IMG/VR virus record: IMGVR_UViG_3300020559_000006
Length of the DNA stretch: 50,037 nucleotides
Direction: 5' to 3' (one strand)
From: a virus
A program made the translations under genes and the position numbers. The notes beneath the pieces were generated by a model that was not told the origin of the DNA, did no database searches, and saw only the letters and a program-made list of their open reading frames with translations. This document shows positions 1 to 49,626 of this stretch, piece after piece; the first letter of the stretch is position 1, and each line of letters opens with the position of its first letter.

Positions 1-69
1 GTAAGCTGATCCGCAACATGGAGAATAGCATTTAAGCAAAACTAAAGCCGCAATTCAAATGTCGGATCA

Positions 70-98
70 TCTACAGATTTTCTGCTATAGTCTATAGT
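70..98 (+). promoter_or_regulatory. Candidate promoter of the TIR gene (TCTACA-17-TATAGT), contains tandem CTATAGT CTATAGT
   Basis: -35-like 70-75, 17-nt spacer, -10 TATAGT 93-98. GGAG SD at 110-113 and ATG at 124. Confidence 0.3.
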
Positions 99-123
99 TC
101 AGATATATTGGAGTTAATCCCAA

Positions 124-360
124 ATGTCCAGACCTAATGAAGACAAAGTTCGGATTCAATGCCGACTGCCAAAAGACAAAAAAGCAGCCTGGGATAAGGT
201 TTTGATAGAAGCCGGCTTTTTCTTCCGGCAAAAAGAAAATATTTATCCTATGTATGGGGAATTTCTAGAAGCACTGCTAGATCGTGATCCTAGAGCGTCC
301 TCAGTTATTTTGAAAATATCTTCTAAAATAATTGAAAAACCACTTGACAAACTAGAATAA
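124..360 (+). CDS. TIR-encoded small protein, possible ribbon-helix-helix (CopG/Arc-like) regulator
   Basis: 78-aa ORF with a GGAG SD. N-terminal VRIQCRLPKDKKAAWDKVL looks like an RHH beta-strand followed by a helix. Paralogue at 49686..49910. Confidence 0.4.
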   Translation: MSRPNEDKVRIQCRLPKDKKAAWDKVLIEAGFFFRQKENIYPMYGEFLEALLDRDPRASSVILKISSKIIEKPLDKLE

Positions 361-372
361 CTCTAGTAGACT
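344..372 (+). promoter_or_regulatory. Inward-facing left-arm promoter (TTGACA-17-TAGACT)
   Basis: TTGACA 344-349 overlaps the 3' end of the TIR ORF; -10 at 367-372 followed by ATAAATATAGGG. Same architecture as the early promoter family. The spacer holds the inverted repeat ACTAGA-N5-TCTAGT. Confidence 0.55.
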
Positions 373-405
373 ATAAATATAGGGTAAAGCAAAGGAAAGA
401 AACAA

Positions 406-558
406 GTGAAGCTAGTAAAAGTTGAGAACAACTGCCAAATGGAAGCAACTGCAGAATATATAACGCTTGAAGCGATCACTTCAGTTGAAGAAGCAGCCAA
501 AAATGGCTGCACTTGGGCTTTAGCCCAGCTAGAAGAGTGGGGCATAAAGTTTGAATAG
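406..558 (+). CDS. Small ORF (50 aa from GTG 406, or 39 aa from ATG 439)
   Basis: Not in the ORF track (<60 aa). AAGGAAAG lies upstream of the GTG. Its stop sits inside the 64-nt repeat. Confidence 0.3.
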   Translation: MKLVKVENNCQMEATAEYITLEAITSVEEAAKNGCTWALAQLEEWGIKFE

Positions 559-602
559 CCCGCCTGACGAGTCCGGCTGACTACCGGACGAAACTACCAC
601 CT
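539..602 (+). repeat. 64-nt direct repeat, copy 1
   Basis: GGGGCATAAAGTTTGAATAGCCCGCCTGACGAGTCCGGCTGACTACCGGACGAAACTACCACCT is identical to 1754-1817. Confidence 0.95.
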
Positions 603-620
603 CGTTGGGTAGACGAGGTG
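559..620 (+). ncRNA. Hammerhead-like motif, degenerate (predicted inactive)
   Basis: Same CUGACGA core, stem II and GAAA as the 1774 copy. Position 16.1 is A rather than U, and the 3' strand of stem I (GAGGUG) no longer pairs with CCCGC. An alternative 8-bp hairpin CACCUCGU/ACGAGGUG forms at 598-620. Confidence 0.5.
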
Positions 621-650
621 ATTCAAATTGATATAAATGAGGAAGAAAAA

Positions 651-1769
651 ATGTTTAAGATTAATGCTCAGGATTTACACTTTACTATTCAGAAGAAATT
701 AAATAAGATCCTTGGCGGATCTTTAGTTGATGGAATTATTGCAACAGGGATTAACCCTGATGAACTTGACTGGGAAGAAACAGAAATTGAAATTTACGGC
801 AGCATAGATTTTGATTGCGACAGACTATCCCAGTGTGTTTCCTGGGGTGAAGAAAAGCAAGAGCAATTAGAAGTAAAAGATGCTTTGTTGTCTGACATTA
901 AGAATGGGTTTAATAAGTTAGATGACTGGCACAAGTACCAAACAAGAGGTGCTTGGGGCTTCTTCGGTTCAGGTTTATCTTCCGGGATTAGCTACTATAT
1001 ACACGAATTAGACCGTAAATATTGCGGTCAAGTTTTTAAAGCTACCGGACGTGATAAAGAAGTAGCTACTTATGACCAAATGGACGGTTTTGGCTTTGCC
1101 GATTCTGTTGACAAACACGTATACACAAAATATGAATATAAACACTCAGATGGTACTATCATCTGGGTTACTGAAAATAAGAAAACATACACTATTCCTA
1201 CTGAACAGGAAGTAGTGGGGAGAATACAGGTTTTAATTTATGAACACTGCAAAAGAGAAAAAATGACATGGGAACTGTTTGTTAGTGACATTGAAAATCG
1301 AAAACAAAAGAACGCGGCTTTTGATGCTGCAGATTTAGCAGCAAGACAAGCAGCCATAAAAGCGGCTGAGTCCGCCATACCCATGCCTGAGTGGTTTCAG
1401 AAAGAGGTTTATTCCAAGGGCAGCGTCAATCGCTTTTGGATTGGTGATGATTACATTTATTCATTCTGGTGGGACACCCAAGATGGGACAGTGTGGCAAC
1501 AATGTGAAGACCGCACCCGTGGGTTGGCTGAACGCACCAGGAAATCTAAATCCTTGGGTTCAGATAGAGATGAGATTATGAACCATATAAACAGCCTATT
1601 GGCTGAACGCAGACGGGCAAGTGAGTTGCTCGCGCAACAAGAAGAAATTAAGCAGCAACAAGAAAAAAGGTACGACGAGTACAGGCACGATCAGAAGATA
1701 AAGAACGGTGTTGTTAAGCCCTTTGAGAAGTGGCTCAAACAAGAGTCAAGAGAGGGGCATAAAGTTTGA
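651..1769 (+). CDS. Hypothetical protein (372 aa)
   Basis: Long ORF with ATG 651 preceded by GAGGAAG (the track ORF starts at 618). No motif recognised. Flanked by the 64-nt direct repeats. Confidence 0.7.
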   Translation: MFKINAQDLHFTIQKKLNKILGGSLVDGIIATGINPDELDWEETEIEIYGSIDFDCDRLSQCVSWGEEKQEQLEVKDALLSDIKNGFNKLDDWHKYQTRGAWGFFGSGLSSGISYYIHELDRKYCGQVFKATGRDKEVATYDQMDGFGFADSVDKHVYTKYEYKHSDGTIIWVTENKKTYTIPTEQEVVGRIQVLIYEHCKREKMTWELFVSDIENRKQKNAAFDAADLAARQAAIKAAESAIPMPEWFQKEVYSKGSVNRFWIGDDYIYSFWWDTQDGTVWQQCEDRTRGLAERTRKSKSLGSDRDEIMNHINSLLAERRRASELLAQQEEIKQQQEKRYDEYRHDQKIKNGVVKPFEKWLKQESREGHKV

Positions 1770-1817
1770 ATAGCCCGCCTGACGAGTCCGGCTGACTACC
1801 GGACGAAACTACCACCT
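1754..1817 (+). repeat. 64-nt direct repeat, copy 2
   Basis: Identical to 539-602. Confidence 0.95.
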
Positions 1818-1829
1818 GGTAGTCGTGGG
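1774..1829 (+). ncRNA. Hammerhead self-cleaving ribozyme, stem I open (type I topology)
   Basis: CCCGC | CUGACGA | GUCCGG-CUGACUA-CCGGAC | GAA | ACUACC-ACCU-GGUAGU | C17 | GUGGG. All invariant core positions are present, with G10.1:C11.1 and A15.1:U16.1. Predicted cleavage falls between 1824 and 1825. Confidence 0.8.
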
Positions 1830-1863
1830 AAGTCACAATTTCACCCCACAAGAGGAAATAAAC

Positions 1864-2226
1864 ATGATCTACTCGTTTTTAAGTCAGGAATTTAACCAGA
1901 AGTTAGGGATTAATCCCGACTTTTCCTACGAGAGGGAAAGTCAAGGTAACACCTTTTATTTCTATATCAGGGAAGGTGTCCTCGTAGTTGAGGAATTTGA
2001 ACACTGCTACGACGATAAAGACCTCGTGAAAGAGGTTAAAATCATCCTAAATAAAGGCGACCACATAATCGCTGATTCGGTAGGTGGACTGACCTTGATC
2101 AAGTTGTTCAAAGTCGGTGTTAGGGTTAGTCTGCTTGATTCAGAGTTGGTAGGGTTGCCACTGGAGCAACAGACGGAGGACATAAAAACGGATATTATTT
2201 ATTCACTGGTTTCTTTAGGTGACTAA
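1864..2226 (+). CDS. Hypothetical protein (120 aa)
   Basis: ATG 1864 preceded by AGAGGAAA. The track start at 1825 coincides with the ribozyme cleavage site and is unlikely to be used. Confidence 0.6.
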   Translation: MIYSFLSQEFNQKLGINPDFSYERESQGNTFYFYIREGVLVVEEFEHCYDDKDLVKEVKIILNKGDHIIADSVGGLTLIKLFKVGVRVSLLDSELVGLPLEQQTEDIKTDIIYSLVSLGD

Positions 2227-2581
2227 AGGAATTTTGTGGGCTGTCATCCAGACACCCCTATTAATTCCCCAACGCTACCCCGTTGGGAGTCCCCGCCATA
2301 TAACCCTTCAGTTTGGGGTGCATCGGGAAAACTGGACACACTGGATAGGCGAAGAGTTCCAAGCCACAACTTTATATGAAGCTTGGAACGGCAAAATACA
2401 AGCTGTAGCTGTCAAACTTCCTGATCATATTCCCTGCGCTAACAAATATCCTCACATATCTGTTAGTTGGTGTAAAGGCATAAAGCCCTATGAATCGAAC
2501 CTGATGCTGTCATCAAAGTTTGACTACAGACTGTTCAAGCGGTCTGTAAAGATGAAAATAGAGTTTTTGGAGTGGGGTTAG
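2219..2581 (+). CDS. Small 2H-phosphoesterase-like protein (LigT/Acb1-like two HxT/S motifs)
   Basis: HITL at His27 and HISV at His79, each inside a hydrophobic strand context. GTG start overlaps the upstream stop. Confidence 0.4.
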   Translation: MTKGILWAVIQTPLLIPQRYPVGSPRHITLQFGVHRENWTHWIGEEFQATTLYEAWNGKIQAVAVKLPDHIPCANKYPHISVSWCKGIKPYESNLMLSSKFDYRLFKRSVKMKIEFLEWG

Positions 2582-2610
2582 ACTTTTGCGGAGCTTCTTA
2601 GTTCCGCGAT

Positions 2611-2647
2611 CGCCAAGATACAAGTAATATTTGCTTATATCTTGGCG
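2611..2647 (+). other. 10-bp stem hairpin (CGCCAAGATA/TATCTTGGCG) next to a HIP1 site
   Basis: Perfect inverted repeat with a 17-nt loop in the 2582-2684 spacer. The T tract is weak. Confidence 0.35.
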
Positions 2648-2684
2648 GTTTATTCGCAAACATAACATTAGGAGTTCAAAATGA

Positions 2685-3116
2685 ATGAGTGTTTATTTTT
2701 TCAGTCGGCACAAAATAGACCCTAAAATGGTCGAAGACCTGGGGGGTGGTGCTATAAACCAGGTTAGAGGGACGATCAAAGATATTCGCCGCACTGGCGA
2801 CACTATCACATTCAGCGAGATAATTCTTGCTCAAGACACAGATAGCGTTCAAGAGATAGTATGCCATACGATCTCGGCTGACTCAATAGTGGTAGCAGTT
2901 GCACCACTAAACCTCCAAATAGACTGGCTTAACGCGGGGATAAGGACCTTCCTTATCCCCCAGACCACACGGGAAGTGGTTGACGGAGAACCGATTTTCT
3001 CCTACACTGGACTGGTGCGGATAAAGAGAATAATAATAGACAAAGAGCAGTGGGTAGGTGTTTCACCTACCATTGAACAGAAACACGCCGAGAGATCGGC
3101 GTTGCACAATTCATAA
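2685..3116 (+). CDS. Hypothetical protein (143 aa)
   Basis: ORF downstream of TTAGGAG. Confidence 0.6.
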   Translation: MSVYFFSRHKIDPKMVEDLGGGAINQVRGTIKDIRRTGDTITFSEIILAQDTDSVQEIVCHTISADSIVVAVAPLNLQIDWLNAGIRTFLIPQTTREVVDGEPIFSYTGLVRIKRIIIDKEQWVGVSPTIEQKHAERSALHNS

Positions 3117-3124
3117 TTTTTAAA

Positions 3125-3153
3125 AGACAGGGTACTTAGATACCCTGTCTTTT
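3125..3153 (+). terminator. Rho-independent terminator of the left-arm operon
   Basis: AGACAGGGTA-CTTAGA-TACCCTGTCT followed by TTT. Confidence 0.8.
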
Positions 3154-3215
3154 GCACAGTTACTTAAACAAATGGCGTGAAGTCAACGGCCATTTAGTTT
3201 CTATTAAAATAATTT

Positions 3216-3258
3216 AAAATCCTCCAAAGTGCTTTTGTATAAGACTTTGGAGGATTTT
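3216..3258. terminator. 15-bp stem hairpin, bidirectional-terminator-like
   Basis: AAAATCCTCCAAAGT / ACTTTGGAGGATTTT with a 13-nt loop and A/T runs on both sides. Confidence 0.6.
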
Positions 3259-3539
3259 TAAATTTAATTATGAGGGATAAAAGGCATACAAAAAATGCGT
3301 GTATGCCTTATGTGTGCTGAAATCTAGCAACTACCGTGATAAATATCGAGTAACCTTACAGATAGTGAACAACGTTACTTTTTGGGTGTAATTGGGTTTA
3401 TTGATGTATCTTGGCTTACTTTTCATTGGGAATTACGTAGAATGTTCATTCCCTGTTCTTTGGGTATGGGGTGATAAATATCCGTAAAACTGGTAAATCA
3501 GATTGGTATTCTGGATAAACAACCAATCTGATCTAATTT

Positions 3540-3959
3540 ATGTTGCACAAAATAATTGTCGGAACTATGTTAATGGTCGCAATACCTAGCCCTTACGCGA
3601 TCGCACAAAATGCACAAAATGGCGATACATTGACTGGATACTTGGAATTAATCTCATCTGGCATGGGCGTAAATAGTAGGGGTGAGTGTTATGGGCGAAA
3701 TGGATTTATCGACATAATGGGTCAAATCCCGGTAATCATCAAAAACGAGTCGGGGACAGTTATTGCCGTCGGGAAAACAGAGACAGGTAAACAACCCGAA
3801 GAACATTCAGCGGTAAGATGTATTTTTAATTTTCGGGTTGAGAATATCCCAAAATCAGTTTTTTATAGCGTCGAGATAGGGCGACGTGGGAGCGAAACGT
3901 TTTCCCATCAACAATTAAAGGATCAGGGTTGGGATTTGAAGTTGAGACTGCACAGATAA
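3540..3959 (+). CDS. Secreted protein of unknown function (moron-like)
   Basis: N-terminal signal peptide MLHKIIVGTMLMVAIPSPYAIAQNA. Isolated gene after a 420-bp hairpin-rich spacer. Its stop abuts the tape measure stop. Confidence 0.6.
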   Translation: MLHKIIVGTMLMVAIPSPYAIAQNAQNGDTLTGYLELISSGMGVNSRGECYGRNGFIDIMGQIPVIIKNESGTVIAVGKTETGKQPEEHSAVRCIFNFRVENIPKSVFYSVEIGRRGSETFSHQQLKDQGWDLKLRLHR

Positions 3960-6900
3960 TTACCTATTCAACGCCCCGCCCGGACGCTGTTGTTTCTGAA
4001 TTTCCGCCAACACAACTGATCTTAGAGAATTTTGCAATTGTGGAACATTGACCGAGCTATCCCCGCCGCCCTCTACAGTGACGGGGATATTTATGTTCAT
4101 GTTTTTAGACCCGATTTCATTACTTAAATTTTGACCACCTCCGACAATACCACCATTCGCAAAATTCAATATTTTGTCTAATCGCAGTTCTTGAAAACGC
4201 TTAGATTGTTCTGCGGTCAATATCATCTCATCTTCATTAAACACGCCCAGTATTGCTTTCCTGCCCCCTGACTGAACCCTCTCGCGGTTTAGTGCTTCTG
4301 ATATGGGGTTACTATTTCCTGTGGCGTAATTGGGGACATATCCTTCACTAAATCCCAGTATCCCACCGCCTTTACCGCCTCCACCGCCGAACAAACCACC
4401 ACCTCCACCAAAGATACTAGAAATAAGGGAGTTAACCGCCAATTGGGTTAATTGTTGGGCGATGCTTCCGATCAGGTCTTTGAAGGCATCCCCCGCAGAT
4501 TTAGACCCAGAAATGATGTCACCAAAGAATGAACCGAGGGCGTTTTTACCAACATCTAATAAGTCTTTGCCGAGTGTTTTCACTTGTTGAGAAATACCCT
4601 CTAAATTAATCTTGTTAATTGCTTCGGCATTGGCTTGTAGTGCAGCTATTTCTTGCTCTGTGTACTCGTTGGCTTTTCCTTTCGCGGCGGCTATTTGTTG
4701 TTCAATTTGTAGTAATTCTTGTTTATATCTAAATTGTTCCTCCATTCTTGCGGCTTCAGCTTCTAATGCGGAGACTTCATATTCATTGCCACCACGTCTG
4801 CGAATTAAACCAGTTTGTGCTGGTAACATTGATGCTTCTTTAGAAAGCGCAGATTCTAGATCCGCAAACCTGCCTTGTTCAATGGTTTTTTGTCCTTCTC
4901 TGGTAAGGGTTTCAAAACTTGATTTTGACTGTTCGCCCAATATTTTAATTTTTTCGTTTAAGTCAGCAATCTTACCGTCTAAAACTTTAATTACATCACT
5001 AGCAGCGTCTAGTTTGCCTTCATTGATTAATTTCTCGCGTCCTTGGGTTAAATCATCATATTCCTGCTTGAGAGTGGTTAACACCTGCTTTTCTTGTTGA
5101 ATTGCGTTTATTTTATCTAATTGAAACTGTAACTCAGCTTTTTGTTGTTGAGTCCGTGCGGTAGAAATTTCTTTATTAAGCTCAAGAACTTGTTTGTTGT
5201 GTTCAATTTCCTGTTTTTCCGACTCCCTTAGCCGTTGATTTTGCAACTCAATTTGTTTACGCTGATTCTCAAATAGTTTTAAATCCACGCCACCCTTATT
5301 AGCAATTGAATGAATTTGAGCAACTAAATTATTAATATCTTTCTGAAGCCGCTTGACTTCCTCAGAATCTTTTTTCAATCCCCCCTCACCCAACAAATAA
5401 ACTTTCCGATCCTGTAAATCATAAAGTTGATTTTGCAGTGGCATTAATGCGGCCTTAGCACTGTATTCAATCTGCGCCTTATCAATTGTTAATTGGATAC
5501 CCTGTTTTGTCGCATCATCGCCAACTAATGATTGCTGCAATTTCAACTGATTAATGTACGCTTCATGGACGCGAGATAACTTTTCAATTTCTCGCTGACG
5601 ATCCTTGTTCTTCTCGATTTCTTTTTCTGCACTGGACTGGTTTAAATTATTGGTTTCTAACTCCAAGTCTCGCAACTGTTTCTGAGATTTGATGATTTCA
5701 TCTAACTGATTAATTGCTTTGGAGTAATCCACGCCAGCATCATCCGGCGTAACAGTTTCACCACGCTTTTTAGCCGCTGCCAAAATCTCTAATTTCTTAT
5801 TTCTGGCATCAAGAAGATCCTCGCGTTCCTGAGAAAATTTGATCAAATTCTCCTGATACCTGTTATCAATCTCGTATTGTTTGGCGCGTTTCTGAATAAT
5901 CTTTTTAGCTTCATCATCTGGGGCTAAAGCCTCGTAAGCTGCAAACTCAGCCCGTTTTTCTTTGTCTAGTTGATCACGTTTTTTAGCATCTAATTCTCGC
6001 TGCTGTTTTTGAGCGTTATCAGCCTGTTTAGTAGCCGCGTCAATCTCATCTTTAATTTCTCGATATTTGGTTTCTGCAAGTTTACGCCGTGCTGCTAATA
6101 AATTCCGTTGATCTTCGGCATTGCCACCTTGAGCGACACCTGGGGTTTGCGCTAATTCCCCGTTCCCCGTTCTCCGTTCTCCAATAGCTGCTTGTTGAGC
6201 AGGTGTAGTATTTGACTGGCTCAGAAATAATTGCATCTCAGAGTTACGCCGCTTGGTTAATCCTGGCAATGCTTGTTTAACTCCGCGATGTTCACCTTTA
6301 TTCCACCTCAGAAACTCTTTAGCCGCACCTGCATAATCTCCAGAGTTTAGTTTTTTGAGTAGGGTACTTTCTCCTAATGCCCCTTCACCCACGTTAAAAG
6401 CGAACGAGGTCAAAGCATCCAATTGATTATTGTTGATGGGGACTTTGACCATTTTCTGAACGCGAGAACGTTTGTAAAGTAACTCATTTAATAGCCGTTG
6501 GTTTGCTTCTTCAACTGTTAAGCGATCGCCTGTTGATTTAGCCTTAGTCCCAAAACCAACCGAGTATTGAGTTCGATCAAAGTATGGTGTTGCTGCAAAA
6601 CCTTCTGATTTTTTAACTAGCGCAACTAAGCTATCTGTCACGCCAGCTTTACCGAAAATCTCCTCATTCTTACCACGCACAATATTGGCAGTGCGAGACG
6701 ATAAACCCGCACCTGTGGGTAGTGCATTTTTCGCTGCTTCTTGGATAGGCTTAAAGCTATTAAGCTCTGTCCCGACGACGGCGTTCACAATACCTACTTG
6801 CCCCTTCCCTTCATCAAAAATCAATTGTTTTGCGCCACTTTGCTTGAGAGCATTTCGGAAACTGTCAAACTCTTGTTGGTTGGCAAAAACAATACACCCA

Positions 6901-9071
6901 GCACTCCCTGGGGCTGTCTGTCGGTTTGCATCTAAGTGAAAACCAATTGCAGATCGTTGAGTGCGAAAAGTGGGATTTACAGGAATAAATCTTGATCCAA
7001 CTCCTGCTCCCATCCCTGCAACTTCGCCACCAATATTGTAAGTGCCATATTCAACAGGTGCTAGTGATCCGCTTTGAGTAGTTCCACCTGCCCCGAACAT
7101 TCCTTGGGTGCGACGAGTACCGCTATTTACAGTGTGTTGAGCGATCGCCCGTCCTTGATCGTCATAAACTACCAAGGCTATTTTCTCTAGCCCGTTTTCG
7201 TCTTTTTGCCCAGTGCGGCGCATGATTACCTTGCTTTTGGGGTTCGCGGGTGATCCTAACCCAAAAAAACCTTGCACGCCCTGAACGATGTTCCCTATTA
7301 TGTTATTACCATTACCAGAGTTAGGTGACGATGCCTGTAGCTGTGCTTGCGGCTGTGTCGTTGGTTGTTGATTTTGTCCTGTTGCCCATTTCCAAAATTC
7401 CTCAGCCTTCTTGGTAGCTAATTGAAACGCGCTGCCAATTCCCGGTATTCCTTGACTTGCAAATTCCCCAGCTTTTTGAATAGCACTACCAATATTTGAT
7501 GTCCATTTACCAATATTTTCGCCAATAGCTTGAGTAATTGAAACTGCGGTTTTTAGCCCTGCATTCAACAAATTAATGCCGTTAGTTGTGAGATTTACAA
7601 CACCATTAAATAAGGACTGAATCAACTTAATCAATGATTTAACTAAATTTACACAGGTATTCCATGCCGCAACAATTCCATCAGCGATCGCTTTTGATAT
7701 ATCAATGGTTTTCTGCCAAATATTATTTAAAGTTGGTTCACTGGCAACCCAAATATCAGCCGCGCCTCTAGCACCTGCTTGGATACCACCAACAATTAAA
7801 TTTATCCCATCAAAAATAAATTTTAACCCGTCAAAAACGACTTTAACTACTCCCCAAAAATCATTAAAGGCAGTAGACATATCCCTGATAATATTCGGGT
7901 TAGTTTCTAAATATTTGGTGAAACTTGTTATCCCGTCTAATAATAATTTAAACGCACCCGCTACTAACTCTTGAATAGCTTTATTTAGGGATTGAACCAA
8001 CTGCGGATTAGCTTTAAAAGTTCCGACTAATTTCTCAGATTCTTTGCGGACATCCTTCATGATTCCGTTAGAAGATGTCAAGCCAGACACAATATCACCA
8101 AATGTCTGGACAATGAAATTCATGATCGGCTCAAATGCCACGCCGATTGATTTCTGGAACTGATAAAAAGTATCTTGGACGTTGGATAGACGACCTTCTA
8201 AAGTTTTTGCTTTATTCTCCATTGCCCCAAAATACGCCCCGCCCTCAGCACTCATGCGGCGTAAAGCTTCCTCAAGGTGACGAAATTCTAGTTTTCCGTC
8301 TGTGGCCAGTTGTCTAATTTCAGATTCCTTTGCCCCTAGCATTTTGGCAAGTTCAGCCCGAAGCTGCACCCCGCGCCCCGTAAATTGGTCAATGTCTTCA
8401 TTCTGTAATTTCCCCTCAGTCCGTGATTTGGCGTAAACTTCCATCAAGTCGCCAAGTCTGGCGTTAGCACCTGCGGCGACATCACCAATGGTTTTGAGGT
8501 CTTTGATAATCTGATCTGGTTTTGCACCGGTTGCTAAGTTTTGGATTGCTGCTTGCTGTAAATCCTTTAGCTCAAACGGTGTAGTAGCTGCAAACTTCTC
8601 TAACTTGCCGACAAAATCATCAATTTCTTTTTGATTGCCCTTGAGGAAGGTTTTTAGTGAAGATTCAAAGTTTTGGAAGTCTTTGGTAACATTGAAAATC
8701 TCACCCGCGAATTGTTGAACCGCACCCAGTGCCGAACCAACTACACCAGTAATTGAGTTAAACGCCCCAATCCCAGCCCCAACAAAAACACCATTAAAGA
8801 CATTGCTTAAAATGCCCTTAATCGGCTCAACTGCGTTCTTGAATCTATCCGTGAAAGTTCTCCCCGCGGCCTGTCCGGCACTCGCAGCTTGAGCAGTTGC
8901 TTGGTTTAAACCTCCTAGCCTGTTTCCTCCGACACTTCCAAAGGCTTGGTTTATCTGCTTCTCAATACCCTTGGCTACCTGCGTGGCGTAAGCCTTGGTT
9001 TGATTCAATTGTTGGTATAGTGCGGCTTGGTTGGCCGTTAGCTGTAGTTCAAGAGTACCAAGGGAAGTCAT
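3960..9071 (-). CDS. Tail tape measure protein with embedded GH24 lysozyme and YkuD-like (L,D-transpeptidase fold) domains
   Basis: 1703 aa. TP901-type TMP core (FELKDLQQAAIQNLATGAKPDQIIKDLKTIGDVAAGANARLGDLMEVYAK...). Lysozyme LVKKSEGFAATPYFD...NQLDALTSFAFNVG at ~6225-6640. IGFHLDAN...GSAGCIVF at ~6885-6950. Long coiled coil and Gly-rich C-terminus. Confidence 0.9.
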   Translation of the reverse strand: MTSLGTLELQLTANQAALYQQLNQTKAYATQVAKGIEKQINQAFGSVGGNRLGGLNQATAQAASAGQAAGRTFTDRFKNAVEPIKGILSNVFNGVFVGAGIGAFNSITGVVGSALGAVQQFAGEIFNVTKDFQNFESSLKTFLKGNQKEIDDFVGKLEKFAATTPFELKDLQQAAIQNLATGAKPDQIIKDLKTIGDVAAGANARLGDLMEVYAKSRTEGKLQNEDIDQFTGRGVQLRAELAKMLGAKESEIRQLATDGKLEFRHLEEALRRMSAEGGAYFGAMENKAKTLEGRLSNVQDTFYQFQKSIGVAFEPIMNFIVQTFGDIVSGLTSSNGIMKDVRKESEKLVGTFKANPQLVQSLNKAIQELVAGAFKLLLDGITSFTKYLETNPNIIRDMSTAFNDFWGVVKVVFDGLKFIFDGINLIVGGIQAGARGAADIWVASEPTLNNIWQKTIDISKAIADGIVAAWNTCVNLVKSLIKLIQSLFNGVVNLTTNGINLLNAGLKTAVSITQAIGENIGKWTSNIGSAIQKAGEFASQGIPGIGSAFQLATKKAEEFWKWATGQNQQPTTQPQAQLQASSPNSGNGNNIIGNIVQGVQGFFGLGSPANPKSKVIMRRTGQKDENGLEKIALVVYDDQGRAIAQHTVNSGTRRTQGMFGAGGTTQSGSLAPVEYGTYNIGGEVAGMGAGVGSRFIPVNPTFRTQRSAIGFHLDANRQTAPGSAGCIVFANQQEFDSFRNALKQSGAKQLIFDEGKGQVGIVNAVVGTELNSFKPIQEAAKNALPTGAGLSSRTANIVRGKNEEIFGKAGVTDSLVALVKKSEGFAATPYFDRTQYSVGFGTKAKSTGDRLTVEEANQRLLNELLYKRSRVQKMVKVPINNNQLDALTSFAFNVGEGALGESTLLKKLNSGDYAGAAKEFLRWNKGEHRGVKQALPGLTKRRNSEMQLFLSQSNTTPAQQAAIGERRTGNGELAQTPGVAQGGNAEDQRNLLAARRKLAETKYREIKDEIDAATKQADNAQKQQRELDAKKRDQLDKEKRAEFAAYEALAPDDEAKKIIQKRAKQYEIDNRYQENLIKFSQEREDLLDARNKKLEILAAAKKRGETVTPDDAGVDYSKAINQLDEIIKSQKQLRDLELETNNLNQSSAEKEIEKNKDRQREIEKLSRVHEAYINQLKLQQSLVGDDATKQGIQLTIDKAQIEYSAKAALMPLQNQLYDLQDRKVYLLGEGGLKKDSEEVKRLQKDINNLVAQIHSIANKGGVDLKLFENQRKQIELQNQRLRESEKQEIEHNKQVLELNKEISTARTQQQKAELQFQLDKINAIQQEKQVLTTLKQEYDDLTQGREKLINEGKLDAASDVIKVLDGKIADLNEKIKILGEQSKSSFETLTREGQKTIEQGRFADLESALSKEASMLPAQTGLIRRRGGNEYEVSALEAEAARMEEQFRYKQELLQIEQQIAAAKGKANEYTEQEIAALQANAEAINKINLEGISQQVKTLGKDLLDVGKNALGSFFGDIISGSKSAGDAFKDLIGSIAQQLTQLAVNSLISSIFGGGGGLFGGGGGKGGGILGFSEGYVPNYATGNSNPISEALNRERVQSGGRKAILGVFNEDEMILTAEQSKRFQELRLDKILNFANGGIVGGGQNLSNEIGSKNMNINIPVTVEGGGDSSVNVPQLQNSLRSVVLAEIQKQQRPGGALNR

Positions 9072-9150: not shown

Positions 9151-9759
9151 CTATAATCGAATTATCTCATAGAAAAAATTGCCATTATTTTCTGATATCC
9201 ATCCAGAAGATTCGCTATTGTATCTGTGAGCATGGATTTTGTAGCCAGGATTTTTCGTTAATGGTTCAGTAATAAAACTGGGGTCAAACCAGATTATTCG
9301 GTTGTTGGGTTGAATGGCGAAACAACCGTTATCAAGTTTTAAAACATGGCCACATTTATGTTCGCTTGGATCTTCCGCCCAATCTCCACCAACCCAATCA
9401 ATTGTGAACATATACTCACCGTCATACCATTTTCCATCTTTGAGAATGGTTTTACAACGTAGTTCGGAAAGGTAGGAATAGGCGATCGCACATGGCTGAT
9501 AACTCAAGCAATCCCACAATTGCAACCAATCTAATGGTAGTTGCTCGCAATCTTCTCTCCAAGCGAGAGCATGAATTGGGACTCTAGCAAATTGCGCTCC
9601 CTGGTTAGTAACTAAATTAAACCCAACTGCCCGACCAGGAATAGAAGTCATGCCGAATACCCGGACGGGTACGCATCCTGTTTGCTGTAAATCCCAATCA
9701 TAAAGAAATGACTTGTTAATAAAACATTTGAAGTGGGGGATATCTACATTGAAGGTCAT
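9151..9759 (-). CDS. Hypothetical protein (202 aa)
   Basis: ORF in the tail operon; no motif recognised. Confidence 0.55.
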   Translation of the reverse strand: MTFNVDIPHFKCFINKSFLYDWDLQQTGCVPVRVFGMTSIPGRAVGFNLVTNQGAQFARVPIHALAWREDCEQLPLDWLQLWDCLSYQPCAIAYSYLSELRCKTILKDGKWYDGEYMFTIDWVGGDWAEDPSEHKCGHVLKLDNGCFAIQPNNRIIWFDPSFITEPLTKNPGYKIHAHRYNSESSGWISENNGNFFYEIIRL

Positions 9760-28270: not shown

Positions 28271-29195
28271 TTATTGCCACTCCTAACTCGGTGCTCATCA
28301 TGTCTACTATCTTTAGAATTACCTGACTCCGATATTGCTGAACCATGCCCTCAGTTGAGATGCCAATTTTGGGTGCAAGTTGGTCAAGTTTAGAGCGAAA
28401 ATTAGCTAAATCACCCTTATCTAAAAAGATAAAAAACTGTGTTTGCTCACCCTTCCCGGTGTAGTTAATTGACTGAACTGCACCAACATCTGTCACATTT
28501 TCAGTTTCAACAATGACCTTTTCCGCAGGTGGTGGAGGTGTGTAATCGCTTCTACTGGGTGTTACGTCAATGGTAGTGCCATCTTCACTCATTTGAGGAT
28601 TTGGGTATTTCTCGTCATCAAAATCGTAACCCGTTTCTTCCTGTTCCTCTTCCGGTTCTTCTTTGCGAACTAGAAAGGCTCGCATAAAACTGTTAGCAGT
28701 TGAAGTATCCCAACCCGCTGTTTTAATCTGTCTTTTGGGCATTTGCGCCAAAATTGCGGCAATTTTACCGGGGTCATCACGTCCATCATGGCTAGTATTG
28801 TTAAGTCGAAGCAGCGCCGACTTTTGGGATAGTTCATCGAGCGTGACGGGAACGACGGGGATAGCAGTCCAATAATTAGCACAAAACCGCTCTCGATGTT
28901 TTTCGGCTACTTTATCTCTCCCCGTCCCTTTGATCCACCGATCCCACTCTTTCAGGAAAAAATCTTCATCCTGTTGGCTTAACCAATCCGCACCCTGAAC
29001 CCTGCCATGTCCTGAGATGAGGTAGCCGAAACTACCGTCTAGGTTTCGCTGAATTGTGGGGTAAATCAACCATCCAAAATCTAGCAAGCTGTCACGAATC
29101 CAAGGCAAATCATTCTCTTCTGAATGTTCGCGGGGATTTTCAGGGTGGAATTTTGCCAATACGCTGGAGATTGGCAATCGTAAAACTTCACTCAT
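28224..29195 (-). CDS. ParB-like N-terminal domain protein (IbrB-like)
   Basis: GYLISGHGRVQGADWL box. Acidic linker and unknown C-terminal half. Confidence 0.55.
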   Translation of the reverse strand: MSEVLRLPISSVLAKFHPENPREHSEENDLPWIRDSLLDFGWLIYPTIQRNLDGSFGYLISGHGRVQGADWLSQQDEDFFLKEWDRWIKGTGRDKVAEKHRERFCANYWTAIPVVPVTLDELSQKSALLRLNNTSHDGRDDPGKIAAILAQMPKRQIKTAGWDTSTANSFMRAFLVRKEEPEEEQEETGYDFDDEKYPNPQMSEDGTTIDVTPSRSDYTPPPPAEKVIVETENVTDVGAVQSINYTGKGEQTQFFIFLDKGDLANFRSKLDQLAPKIGISTEGMVQQYRSQVILKIVDMMSTELGVAINDSTDGAITAENVGF

Positions 29196-30309
29196 TTTTA
29201 GCCTTCTCTACCGCTTGTTGTGAGTGAATCATTGCCTCATGCAGCGATTTTAACGCCGCTTCTACTTGAGGAGAATCGCCACAGGTTTTGATCACCCAAT
29301 CTGCAAGTCCGGTAAACTTGCTGGTAATTTGCCATTGTTGTTGTACTACCGTCATTTGTTTCTTCGATAGATTTATTAAATTATTGATAACATAATTTTT
29401 ACTCCATAGGTAAGCGGTGCTGTGGTCAACTCCCAAATAAGTTTCACACCAATAACTAGATTTACCGTTAGCGATCGCCTCCAATACTTTCACCTTCACA
29501 TCATTAGAATAGCCACGTCTCCCAGTCGGTAACGGGTTTTCTCTGAATTGAGTCTGGCAGGACTTACACAAATAACCCTGTTTTCCGTCACGCTTACCAT
29601 TTTTAATAGTTTGGTAATCTTTGCAATTTGGGCATTGAACCCGCCCTACTGCTATCAACTTTAATTTTCGTAAAGCGTCAGATTCAATTCGGCGCAACTC
29701 CTTCAATTTAATATTATGGATTTGGCACAACATTTTGGCGGGGATATGGGTAATATATAAATCTTTGATGATTGTGGCGTGAAGTTCTGGCAACTTATCA
29801 AGCAGCGGGAGAATTGACTCTGATTCCTCTGCTTGCTCCGTTGTCAACTGTTCGGGTAGTTCAGGATTATTTTGATTGCAAGCTATCGCCGCCTCTTTGG
29901 CAACTTGTAAAGAGATATTTAGTTCAATGGCCGCTTGTTCATAAGTTACGCCATGTTTTTGCGCGTGTCGCTTCAATTTTTGGTGGGTTTCTTGGAGGGG
30001 ACGCGGAACTTTTACCATCCGCGCTTTATCCCTGACAAATTGCGCCATTGCACCATAAATAAACGGCACGGCGTAACTGGAAAGTTTAATTTTCTTAGTA
30101 GGGTCAAACCTCTCCACCGCTTTGATTAATCCCTCCGCCCCAATTTGTATCAGGTCTTCTCTTGGGACTGTGCAGCAAGCGGTCATTTTACCTGCTATAT
30201 GACCGACTAGCCCCATGTTAGTCTCAACTATTTTGTTTCTCAGTCGGATGTCCCTGGTTTGGTGAAAATTAATTAAAAGTTGCTGATTGTCTAAGTATGC
30301 CGCGTCCAT
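29188..30309 (-). CDS. Sigma-70 family factor fused to a C-terminal InsA-like zinc ribbon plus HTH
   Basis: Region 2 DLIQIGAEGLIKAVERFDP...SYAVPFIYGAMAQFVRD, region 3 VKVPRPLQE, region 4 ELRRIESDALRKLK. Then CPNCKDYQTIKNGKRDGKQGYLCKSCQTQF. Confidence 0.85.
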   Translation of the reverse strand: MDAAYLDNQQLLINFHQTRDIRLRNKIVETNMGLVGHIAGKMTACCTVPREDLIQIGAEGLIKAVERFDPTKKIKLSSYAVPFIYGAMAQFVRDKARMVKVPRPLQETHQKLKRHAQKHGVTYEQAAIELNISLQVAKEAAIACNQNNPELPEQLTTEQAEESESILPLLDKLPELHATIIKDLYITHIPAKMLCQIHNIKLKELRRIESDALRKLKLIAVGRVQCPNCKDYQTIKNGKRDGKQGYLCKSCQTQFRENPLPTGRRGYSNDVKVKVLEAIANGKSSYWCETYLGVDHSTAYLWSKNYVINNLINLSKKQMTVVQQQWQITSKFTGLADWVIKTCGDSPQVEAALKSLHEAMIHSQQAVEKAKNE

Positions 30310-48645: not shown

Positions 48646-49626
48646 CTAATCCGCCATATCTTCAGTAATACGTTCACACACAACCCGAAAACCAATATGG
48701 ATGTCGTAGTAGTGGTCGAGATTGCTGAGGTTGCGAAAAGCAGAACGACAATTCTCAGGATAGGTGTCCCACGAACCACCGCGCAGCAGTTTCCAGTTAT
48801 TATCCTCTTCATTATTTAGCCATGCGCTTCCATCTATTGGCGCACCTTCATAGTCATTATGCCAATCGTCTTGACACCATTCCCAGACGTTGCCGTGCAT
48901 ATCGTATAATCCAAAGTTATTAGCTACTCCAAAGCTGCCTACTTCTGTTGTTTCTTTTCGATAAACTCCTTTAGATCCTTGACCATAAGTGTAATTACAA
49001 TTGTAGTTAACCAAATCCGTTGTTATCGTCTCTCCAAAGTGAAATGGTGTGGTAGTTCCGGCTCGACAGGCATATTCCCATTCCGCTTCACTTGGCAGTC
49101 TGTAAGTTTTTCCAGTTATTTGGCTTAACTTTTCACAAAAAGCCACTGCATTATCCCAACTAACGCATTCAACAGGACGATTACTACCTTTAAAGAGAGA
49201 AGGGTTAGTTCCCATAATAGCTTGATATTGTGCCTGTGTTACCGGATATTTTCCCATCAAGAAACTAGGAACTGTAACATGATGTTGGGGACGTTCATCA
49301 TCATTGCTACCTTCCTCTGTTTCTGGTGAACCCATCATAAAACTGCCACTAGGAATCATCACCATTTCTAATTGAACTACATTATATCCTGTTTTTTTAG
49401 CTAGATTTTTCCACTCGGAATGCTTCCAACCTTTTAAAAGGTTGAAGGTTTTTTCATCCATTAAGAGATCATACTCGGAATGCTTCACGCCGATTAAATC
49501 GGCCAATTCCTTGACCCAGGGTAATTCGATTTCACATGAAATCATGTGAGTATTTGTTTGCATTGTTTGATTAGCTTCGACTTCGGTAAATGGTTGGATA
49601 ATTTGATTAGTTTCCATTGGAGTCAT
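48646..49626 (-). CDS. FGE-sulfatase (SUMF1/EgtB/PvdO family) domain protein
   Basis: [13 protein letters not shown]...[22 protein letters not shown]...[14 protein letters not shown]...[17 protein letters not shown]...[15 protein letters not shown]...LRGGSW. Confidence 0.85.

Follow-up and report, generated by a model that had tools for sequence, protein, structure and literature searches.

Thousands of hammerhead ribozymes are present in bacteria, and many of them flank single genes in prophages, as laid out in the survey by Perreault et al. (2011, PLoS Comput Biol, PMC3088659). According to the same survey, pseudoknots replace the loop–loop contacts in about 40% of the representatives, among all three types, and were proven by mutation to be critical for fast cleavage; for three clusters in prophages, cleavage of polycistronic RNA was demonstrated both in vitro and in Escherichia coli. 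A 2019 review (PMC6765202) describes the purpose of hammerhead RNA processing in bacteria and phages as still undefined. The element described here is located in a viral DNA of 50,037 nucleotides (nt) (IMG/VR virus record IMGVR_UViG_3300020559_000006; the whole stretch is referred to as the window), in the spacer between two open reading frames (ORFs), orf651 and orf1864. It is very probably a type I hammerhead with a pseudoknot of five base pairs (bp) at positions 1774–1835, which acts by the cleavage mechanism proposed below, and a second copy upstream of it is an inactive by-product. Unless stated otherwise, all features are located on the + strand.

As in the phage and prophage hammerheads of Perreault et al. 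(PMC3088659), the window element has a canonical core and a pseudoknot in place of a loop–loop contact, is intergenic in a phage and belongs to a set of elements of which often several per genome each flank a single small gene. The proposed role, the processing of long phage transcripts into gene-length mRNAs, is the same as well. However, the window element stems from a different host group, the siphoviruses of Nostocales cyanobacteria. It is a type I hammerhead whose stem I is fixed at 5 bp (in the family mostly CCCAC/GUGGG), with a pseudoknot formed with the 3′ tail and a covarying box downstream. Judged by primary and predicted secondary structure, the element has all characters of the hammerhead class, whose gene-flanking representatives in phages have been known since 2011, and it alters neither the known chemistry of hammerheads nor the picture of their presence in phages. 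It adds a large, well-defined phage family that is unreported by default Rfam annotation, and a specific architecture composed of the pseudoknot, a putative, covarying post-cleavage hairpin and then a Shine–Dalgarno (SD) sequence.

The hammerhead motif (1774–1829) comprises a complete core, three helices and a GUC cleavage triplet. The 5′ strand of stem I, CCCGC (1774–1778), pairs with its 3′ strand, GUGGG (1825–1829), including one G:U pair, and is followed by the catalytic core segment C3–A9, CUGACGA (1779–1785), which is invariant in the family apart from N7. Stem II, GUCCGG/CCGGAC (1786–1791/1799–1804, whole element 1786–1804), begins with the closing pair G10.1:C11.1 and carries the 7-nt loop II, CUGACUA. 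The core positions G12, A13 and A14 (GAA, 1805–1807), also invariant in the family, lead into stem III, ACUACC/GGUAGU (1808–1813/1818–1823, whole element 1808–1823), which has the loop ACCU and the A15.1:U16.1 pair, formed by A1808 and U1823. The predicted scissile bond, placed by the hammerhead architecture, lies 3′ of C17 (1824) between 1824 and 1825. In a preliminary description of this DNA, stems, core and loops had been given the same coordinates, each of which agrees with the sequence base for base, as do the distances of the cleavage site from the neighboring genes, 55 nt past the stop at 1769 and 39 nt ahead of the ATG at 1864. The core features used by Perreault et al. (2011) are all present (C3–A9, GAA, A15.1:U16.1 and an H17 that is not G), and the topology is that of type I, with stem I open and stems II and III capped by loops. 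By analogy with this class, the RNA would be expected to cleave itself between C1824 and G1825, leaving a 2′,3′-cyclic phosphate and a 5′-OH end. For the isolated 56-nt RNA, the predicted fold is exactly the three-way junction (−22.3 kcal/mol, z = −2.4).

The motif was described earlier as very unlikely to have arisen by chance, and the controls agree. A generic, permissive type I descriptor (minimum stem lengths of 4, 3 and 3 bp) found a single site in the window, which is 1774–1829, compared to three sites in 400 composition-matched random 50-kb sequences (expectation 0.0075 per window). The pattern of core and stem II did not match once in 100 shuffles. Because the random-sequence and shuffle controls were near zero, a chance origin is excluded.

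The preliminary description had overlooked three features, namely, a pseudoknot, a CCCAC box downstream and a defective copy upstream. The pseudoknot is formed by UGACU within loop II (1793–1797) and AGUCA, which begins one nucleotide past stem I (1831–1835). All five pairs are possible in the window (U1793–A1835, G1794–C1834, A1795–U1833, C1796–G1832 and U1797–A1831). In relatives, both strands are altered together (UGGCU/AGCCA, UGGU/ACCA, CAAGA/UCUUG and CAACAGU/ACUGUU), and the three central pairs are formed in all of the 20 aligned sequences, with exchanges between G–C (14) and A–U (6) and between C–G (16) and U–A (4). An alignment-free permutation test with 47 parsed members gave a mean best pseudoknot helix of 4.32 bp, compared to 3.57 ± 0.11 bp after the tails had been swapped (maximum 3.94 bp in 500 permutations); the 5′ flank and a distal tail segment, used as controls, yielded 3.40 and 2.70 bp, respectively. 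The covarying 5-bp pseudoknot would thus provide, in structural terms, the tertiary contact between the regions of stem I and stem II on which rapid cleavage at physiological Mg depends in hammerheads, and we propose that it stabilizes the ribozyme. Since the pseudoknot reaches position 1835, the ribozyme spans 1774–1835; the motif at 1774–1829, previously called complete, is exact as a motif, but too short as a ribozyme.

The family of the window element was gathered by pattern scans of a viral collection (107 contigs), in which an ascertainment bias favors members with GUGGG. A covariance model built from 13 of its members (R1) found 154 copies, distributed over 100 viral loci; single contigs contain up to ten or more of them. 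A second model (R2) was built without the window's own sequence, only from other phages; when applied to the whole window with filters off, it assigned 80.0 bits to positions 1774–1839 (E about 3e-20). In an alignment of 20 sequences, 96.1% of the pair cells contained standard pairs, compared to 26–54% when the partners were slid against each other, and none of 500 shuffles reached the observed values. Double-sided changes were found in 15 pairs across stems I, II and III and the pseudoknot, in agreement with a smaller alignment. With regard to the single helices, 98–100% of the cells were paired, and compensatory substitutions were detected in all three. The pairs of stem I were formed in 100% of the sequences, three of them with double-sided changes; four of the six pairs of stem II and five of the six pairs of stem III showed such changes, while G10.1:C11.1 was invariant and A15.1:U16.1 was found in 20 of 20 sequences. 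The core positions were unchanged across the aligned relatives. Among the 47 parsed members, N7 was U, C or A, and H17 was C, A or U, but never G. The variation thus sits exactly where a hammerhead tolerates change, which supports the assignment. Within this large phage family all three stems covary. This comparison settles the assignment as a hammerhead and corroborates its type I topology and the position of the cleavage site given in the preliminary description.

The ribozyme is retained at its intergenic position behind upstream genes whose products are no more than 37–66% identical to that of orf651, which confirms the intergenic location described before. In L002, a viral contig of 118 kb, an intact hammerhead occupies the corresponding position behind a homolog with 66% protein identity. 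This hammerhead differs from that of the window only at N7, in one G:U pair of stem I that is replaced by A:U, and in loop III, whereas the spacer after it cannot be aligned with the window. Substitutions that are neutral or compensatory while the flanking spacers diverge freely argue for purifying selection on a foldable ribozyme. Ten of the fetched loci include the 3′ end of an orf651 homolog, and in every one of them a co-oriented hammerhead begins 10–17 nt past the last aligned codon. The synteny within this clade comprises orf651, the hammerhead, one to three paralogs of orf1864, each with a hammerhead, a 2H-phosphoesterase-like ORF and orf2685.

As in the clusters described by Perreault et al. 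(2011), several co-oriented hammerheads per phage genome flank single genes or short blocks. The window itself contains one intact and one defective copy, L002 has four copies within 1.3 kb and L189 has ten or more per contig. The four hammerheads of L002 (2067–3364, starting at 2067, 2514, 2911 and 3308) are spaced by approximately 400 nt, each behind one small gene, and two of these genes are paralogs of orf1864. This arrangement indicates a tandem duplication of gene-plus-ribozyme units. Searches of deposited phages with megablast (window 600–2600) and with tblastn (orf651) gave no match. A loose-pattern scan of a genome collection returned mostly chance matches; among the 80 loci listed in that scan, the model confirmed a single one (L061, a metagenome-assembled genome (MAG) of the Oscillospiraceae), and the scan was therefore uninformative as to the host. 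In the Aphanizomenon phage isolate vB_AphaS-CL131, of which 12 kb of the genome were scanned, an unannotated member of the family (70.3 bits) was identified between gp142 and gp141 (L232 6001–6065, corresponding to MG209611.1 105160–105232, − strand). It contains an extra U between A9 and G10.1. The paper on the vB_AphaS-CL131 genome makes no mention of ribozymes (PMC6293099). This member links the family to a culturable phage–host pair, in which cleavage and its effect on expression would be measurable in a real infection.

Downstream of the ribozyme, a CCCAC box (1845–1849), which is a copy of the 5′ strand of stem I as found in most of the family, can pair with the GUGGG strand at 1825–1829. 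It is followed by the SD sequence AAGAGGA (1850–1856) and, at 1864, by the start codon ATG of the downstream gene (1850–1866 in total). A test that permits G:U pairs is uninformative for GUGGG, because its partner pattern YYYRY carries little information; it was set aside for these members and replaced by strict Watson–Crick matching. An exact CCCAC was found 3–20 nt downstream in 23 of the 39 members with GUGGG, compared to 1.8 on average and at most 8 in shuffled tails and 0 of 39 in the upstream flank. CCCAC is absent from all eight members whose stem I differs; three of these have, in its stead, a box exactly complementary to their own strand (GUAGG..CCUAC, GCGGA..UCCGC and GCGAG..CUCGC), and three more are within one G:U pair or mismatch of such a complement. 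The covariation of the box implies a conserved 5′-terminal hairpin on the predicted 3′ cleavage product. The loop of this putative hairpin would hold the 3′ strand of the pseudoknot, and the hairpin would be located directly ahead of the ribosome-binding site. In 16 of the 23 box-bearing members, an SD-like motif starts 0–1 nt past the box. The box with an immediately following SD sequence is seen family-wide, for example, in L189, L219 and L228. In a literature survey that was not exhaustive, no description of such a box or of a post-cleavage hairpin next to an SD sequence was found in the consulted parts of PMC3088659 or PMC6765202.

A similar combination is used in synthetic biology. Synthetic insulators of the RiboJ type consist of a self-cleaving hammerhead and, behind it, a hairpin, both upstream of the ribosome-binding site. 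The order of the parts (ribozyme, hairpin at the new 5′ end, SD sequence) is the same at the locus in the window, and by analogy the same effect would be expected, a defined 5′ end that is independent of the upstream sequence. In contrast to RiboJ, the window element is natural, it is located between cistrons rather than behind a promoter, and its putative hairpin re-uses the 3′ strand of stem I.

Based on these features, the following course of events is proposed. The ribozyme would be transcribed within a multi-gene RNA, probably starting from a sigma-70-like promoter at 344–372 (TTGACA, 17 nt, TAGACT). This promoter is a consensus match (10 of 12 positions) and the best site within 1–4200; a TTGACA element also precedes the homologous gene in L002, and no convincing terminator was found ahead of the ribozyme. 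It is likely the start of a transcript that carries both hammerhead copies. Once stem I is complete, the ribozyme would fold and cut itself between C1824 and G1825. The upstream product would be the orf651 RNA, ending in the hairpins of stems II and III and a 2′,3′-cyclic phosphate, and the downstream product, with orf1864, the 2H-like ORF and the following genes, would begin with a 5′-OH on G1825. After cleavage, GUGGG (1825–1829) could re-pair with the CCCAC box (1845–1849), so that the new 5′ end would be enclosed in a hairpin directly ahead of the ribosome-binding site. The likely outcome would be that stability and translation of the downstream cistrons are uncoupled from the upstream cistron. 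Co-transcription and the effect on the fate of the mRNA are inferred from the arrangement of these elements. The locus had been assigned to a left-arm early operon before; the intergenic position in a co-directional block of genes holds, whereas "early" is unsupported and an operon is plausible only, given one promoter and no convincing terminator.

Several results weigh against the reading of the locus as a self-cleaving ribozyme with a re-pairing 5′ end. At the gathering thresholds of Rfam, no match was obtained in the whole window. With the Rfam models in sensitive mode on 201 nt (1700–1900), the range proposed for this check in the preliminary description, Hammerhead_1 (RF00163) was aligned end to end (model positions 1–45 of 45) with E = 0.0014, but scored 23.1 bits, below its gathering score of 34. 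Topology and core are like those of Hammerhead_1, whereas stems II and III exceed their counterparts in the model in length; the shortfall arises because the excess is treated as insertions of 11 and 10 nt, and the gathering score is the threshold of one particular model rather than a structural criterion. RAGATH-1 (RF03152), a hammerhead group similar to type I that has additional sequence upstream, scored far under its threshold (sensitive mode, 18.1 bits vs. a gathering score of 56.3, E = 0.76), and the element is not a member of this group. None of approximately 30 related hammerheads in eight loci (L002, L006, L010, L149, L172, L189, L212 and L232) reached the Rfam gathering score, although the hammerheads of these loci obtained 32–82 bits with the family models; default Rfam annotation therefore overlooks the family. 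The GUGGG/CCCAC hairpin is weak when considered alone (−7.2 kcal/mol, z = −0.9), and in most members it is backed by sequence conservation, with covariation in only about six informative cases. The support for the promoter and the operon structure consists of consensus matches. When the RNA was folded in a context of 131 nt, the minimum-energy fold replaced stem I by an upstream GGGC/GCCC pairing, and stems II and III persisted in the centroid structure, so that folding may depend on the order of transcription. Finally, in L006 and L155 a spacer resembling a promoter, in place of an SD sequence and a start codon, comes after the hammerhead behind the orf651 homolog. It may thus be the 3′ end of the upstream mRNA, no less than the 5′ end of the downstream mRNA, to which the conserved role relates.

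The upstream copy of the hammerhead (copy 1, 559–619) scored 51.1 and 48.7 bits with the two family models. It is part of a direct repeat (533–605/1748–1820) of 73 nt with 97% identity, which brackets orf651 at a spacing of 1215 nt. The 5′ half of copy 1 (5′ strand of stem I, core, stem II, GAA and 5′ strand of stem III) is identical to the intact copy. In copy 1, an A:A is found at 15.1/16.1, three of five stem I pairs are formed and the 3′ strand of stem III as well as the pseudoknot partner are missing. The minimum-energy fold contains stem II and an unrelated hairpin (599–606/612–619), but no junction, and copy 1 is predicted to be inactive. No hammerhead copy is present at this position in the loci of the relatives. 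The 3′ half of copy 1 corresponds to ancestral coding sequence: the relatives have an in-frame N-terminal extension "...RW(V/M)DE(L/V)(I/L)xID..." that matches window 606–632 (WVDEVIQID), and their orf651 homologs comprise 396–420 amino acids (aa), compared to 372–383 aa in the window. Copy 1 was created by an insertion of 68 nt (538–605) with TGGG at both junctions, and the removal of these 68 nt fuses an ORF at 406–558 in frame with the ORF at 618–1769. Because the deletion restores the frame and the relatives have the extension, copy 1 is an accidental partial duplication that split a gene and not a partner ribozyme. As judged from this comparison, the insertion divided an ancestral longer gene into the ORFs 406–558 and 618/651–1769, and it did so in this phage lineage only. 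A third partial repeat (2856–2883, within the ORF 2685–3116), with 71% similarity to the 5′ part of the hammerhead, was discarded; its core is broken (CAUACGA), neither family model matches it and it is probably due to chance.

The two copies raise the question of whether 559–619 and 1774–1829 jointly excise a 1.2-kb RNA, which would then be circularized by ligation or processed as a unit. The direct repeat does bracket one gene at a spacing of 1215 nt, and circular or spliced products were raised as a possibility for clustered hammerheads by Perreault et al. (PMC3088659). In that study, however, such products could not be detected. Moreover, copy 1 is broken in stem I, at 15.1/16.1, in stem III and in the pseudoknot, it is misfolded in the prediction, it is missing from every relative and it is explained by a 68-nt insertion into coding sequence, and none of the 30 scanned ORFs was recognized as encoding an RNA ligase. 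Excision is thus hardly conceivable, and the idea of a circular RNA or of paired ribozymes was rejected, because copy 1 is defective, lineage-specific and an insertion into coding sequence. The same material also bears on whether the hammerhead is a decaying or selfish repeat without function for the phage, or a chance match. Hammerheads are clearly recombinogenic here, as seen from the partial copy within a gene, the tandem duplications in L002 and near-identical copies within contigs. Nevertheless, this explanation is very unlikely: chance is excluded by the shuffle and random-sequence controls, the ribozyme is intact at the orthologous position across relatives with 37–66% protein identity, substitutions affect neutral or compensatory positions only, in contrast to the freely diverging spacers, and the sole clearly accidental copy, copy 1, is the broken one.

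With a functional, pseudoknotted hammerhead accepted, its selected role could still be the formation of the 3′ end of the orf651 mRNA, in which two hairpins and a cyclic phosphate would resist 3′ exonucleases and any downstream effect would be secondary. The 3′ end of the orf651 homolog is the sole constant partner of the hammerhead in the clade (10 of 10 loci), and the following sequence varies: in most loci it is a paralog of orf1864, behind the hammerhead of L006 at 2218 another gene, and behind that of L006 at 2637 as well as in L155 a noncoding spacer resembling a promoter. On the other hand, the box plus SD sequence is common in the wider family (box in 23 of 39, SD within 1 nt in 16 of 23), and many unrelated genes have a hammerhead in front of them, an indication that the downstream product has a role, too. 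A role confined to the upstream 3′ end is therefore possible, but rather doubtful, and the two roles are not mutually exclusive. The two partners of GUGGG could also constitute a conformational switch, in which pairing with CCCGC (on) or with the CCCAC box (off) would allow cleavage to be tuned by transcription speed, ribosome loading or a factor. The partners of 1825–1829 are mutually exclusive, both are conserved and both covary, and the folds also compete for the pseudoknot strand, which is located in the loop of the alternative hairpin. Yet, the ribozyme is fully transcribed at least 10 nt before the box emerges, the hammerhead (−22.3 kcal/mol) by far exceeds the hairpin (−7.2 kcal/mol) in stability and no ligand- or protein-binding feature is evident, which makes a switch quite improbable.

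The predicted 3′ cleavage product also contains a miniature 2H-phosphoesterase-like ORF (2219–2581), whose start overlaps the stop of orf1864. With 120 aa, it is well below the length of typical members of the 2H phosphoesterases, which are characterized by two H-x-T/S motifs on a fold of duplicated alpha/beta lobes. It matches the Pfam family PF08302 (tRNA_lig_CPD) above the cut-off (E = 1.7e-7), and the motifs HIT (residues 27–29, H-x-T) and HIS (79–81, H-x-S) are invariant in 23 homologs. The top Foldseek matches were all CNPase catalytic domains, albeit weak ones (TMq about 0.5, E about 0.01), obtained with an AF2 model of pLDDT 64. In the clade, the ORF is syntenic with the hammerhead module, and its co-occurrence with the ribozyme is explained by synteny within one clade; in the wider family, no 2H-like homolog was seen near hammerheads. 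The scan of 30 ORFs revealed no RtcB either. The vicinity of an enzyme family for 2′,3′-cyclic phosphates to ribozymes that would produce such ends is suggestive, but that the enzyme acts on the ends made by the ribozyme is speculative. An Acb1-like nuclease directed at cyclic-nucleotide immune signals, which would presumably serve anti-defense, is an equally possible role. It is rather unlikely that the locus represents a ribozyme-plus-end-healing module, that is, a four-part cistron insulator (pseudoknotted hammerhead, refolding 5′-terminal hairpin, SD sequence and start codon) that cyanophages and many other phages re-use to give each small gene a protected mRNA end, combined with a 2H-like enzyme that heals cyclic phosphate ends.

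The upstream gene, orf651 (651–1769, 372 aa), ends with a stop codon 4 nt ahead of stem I. Family searches assigned it to no informative family. Its product is 100% identical to the hypothetical protein AN484_17740 of an Aphanizomenon flos-aquae WA102 MAG, and other homologs are encoded in Sphaerospermopsis MAGs. Relative to the homologs, its C-terminus is extended (QESREGHKV) by a lineage-specific stretch of 26 nt. This stretch includes GGGC 1755–1758, the segment that can pair with GCCC 1773–1776; the latter overlaps the 5′ strand of stem I, and the pairing competes with stem I. The downstream gene, orf1864 (1864–2226), encodes 120 aa and is represented by one to three paralogs in the relatives, each followed by its own hammerhead. 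Sequence searches of the PDB with orf651, orf1864 and the 2H-like ORF yielded nothing useful.

Siphovirus-type genes in the window encode a tape-measure protein with a lysozyme domain, the tail proteins J and L, the large subunit of the terminase and a sigma-70-like factor. Tail protein J is nearest to that of Cylindrospermopsis phages (45% identity). Together with the homologs of orf651 and the family member in vB_AphaS-CL131, this match places the host among the Nostocales cyanobacteria; the phage is a siphovirus of this group. The tape-measure protein (3960–9071, − strand) comprises 1703 aa, and its internal phage-lysozyme domain covers residues 820–945. The gene of the sigma-70-like factor, in which regions 2 and 4 were recognized, is located at 29188–30309 (− strand). 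Two further genes on the − strand encode a PHROG 3704 protein (9151–9759), annotated as a ferredoxin in the category of auxiliary metabolic genes, and a protein with an FGE-sulfatase domain (48646–49626).

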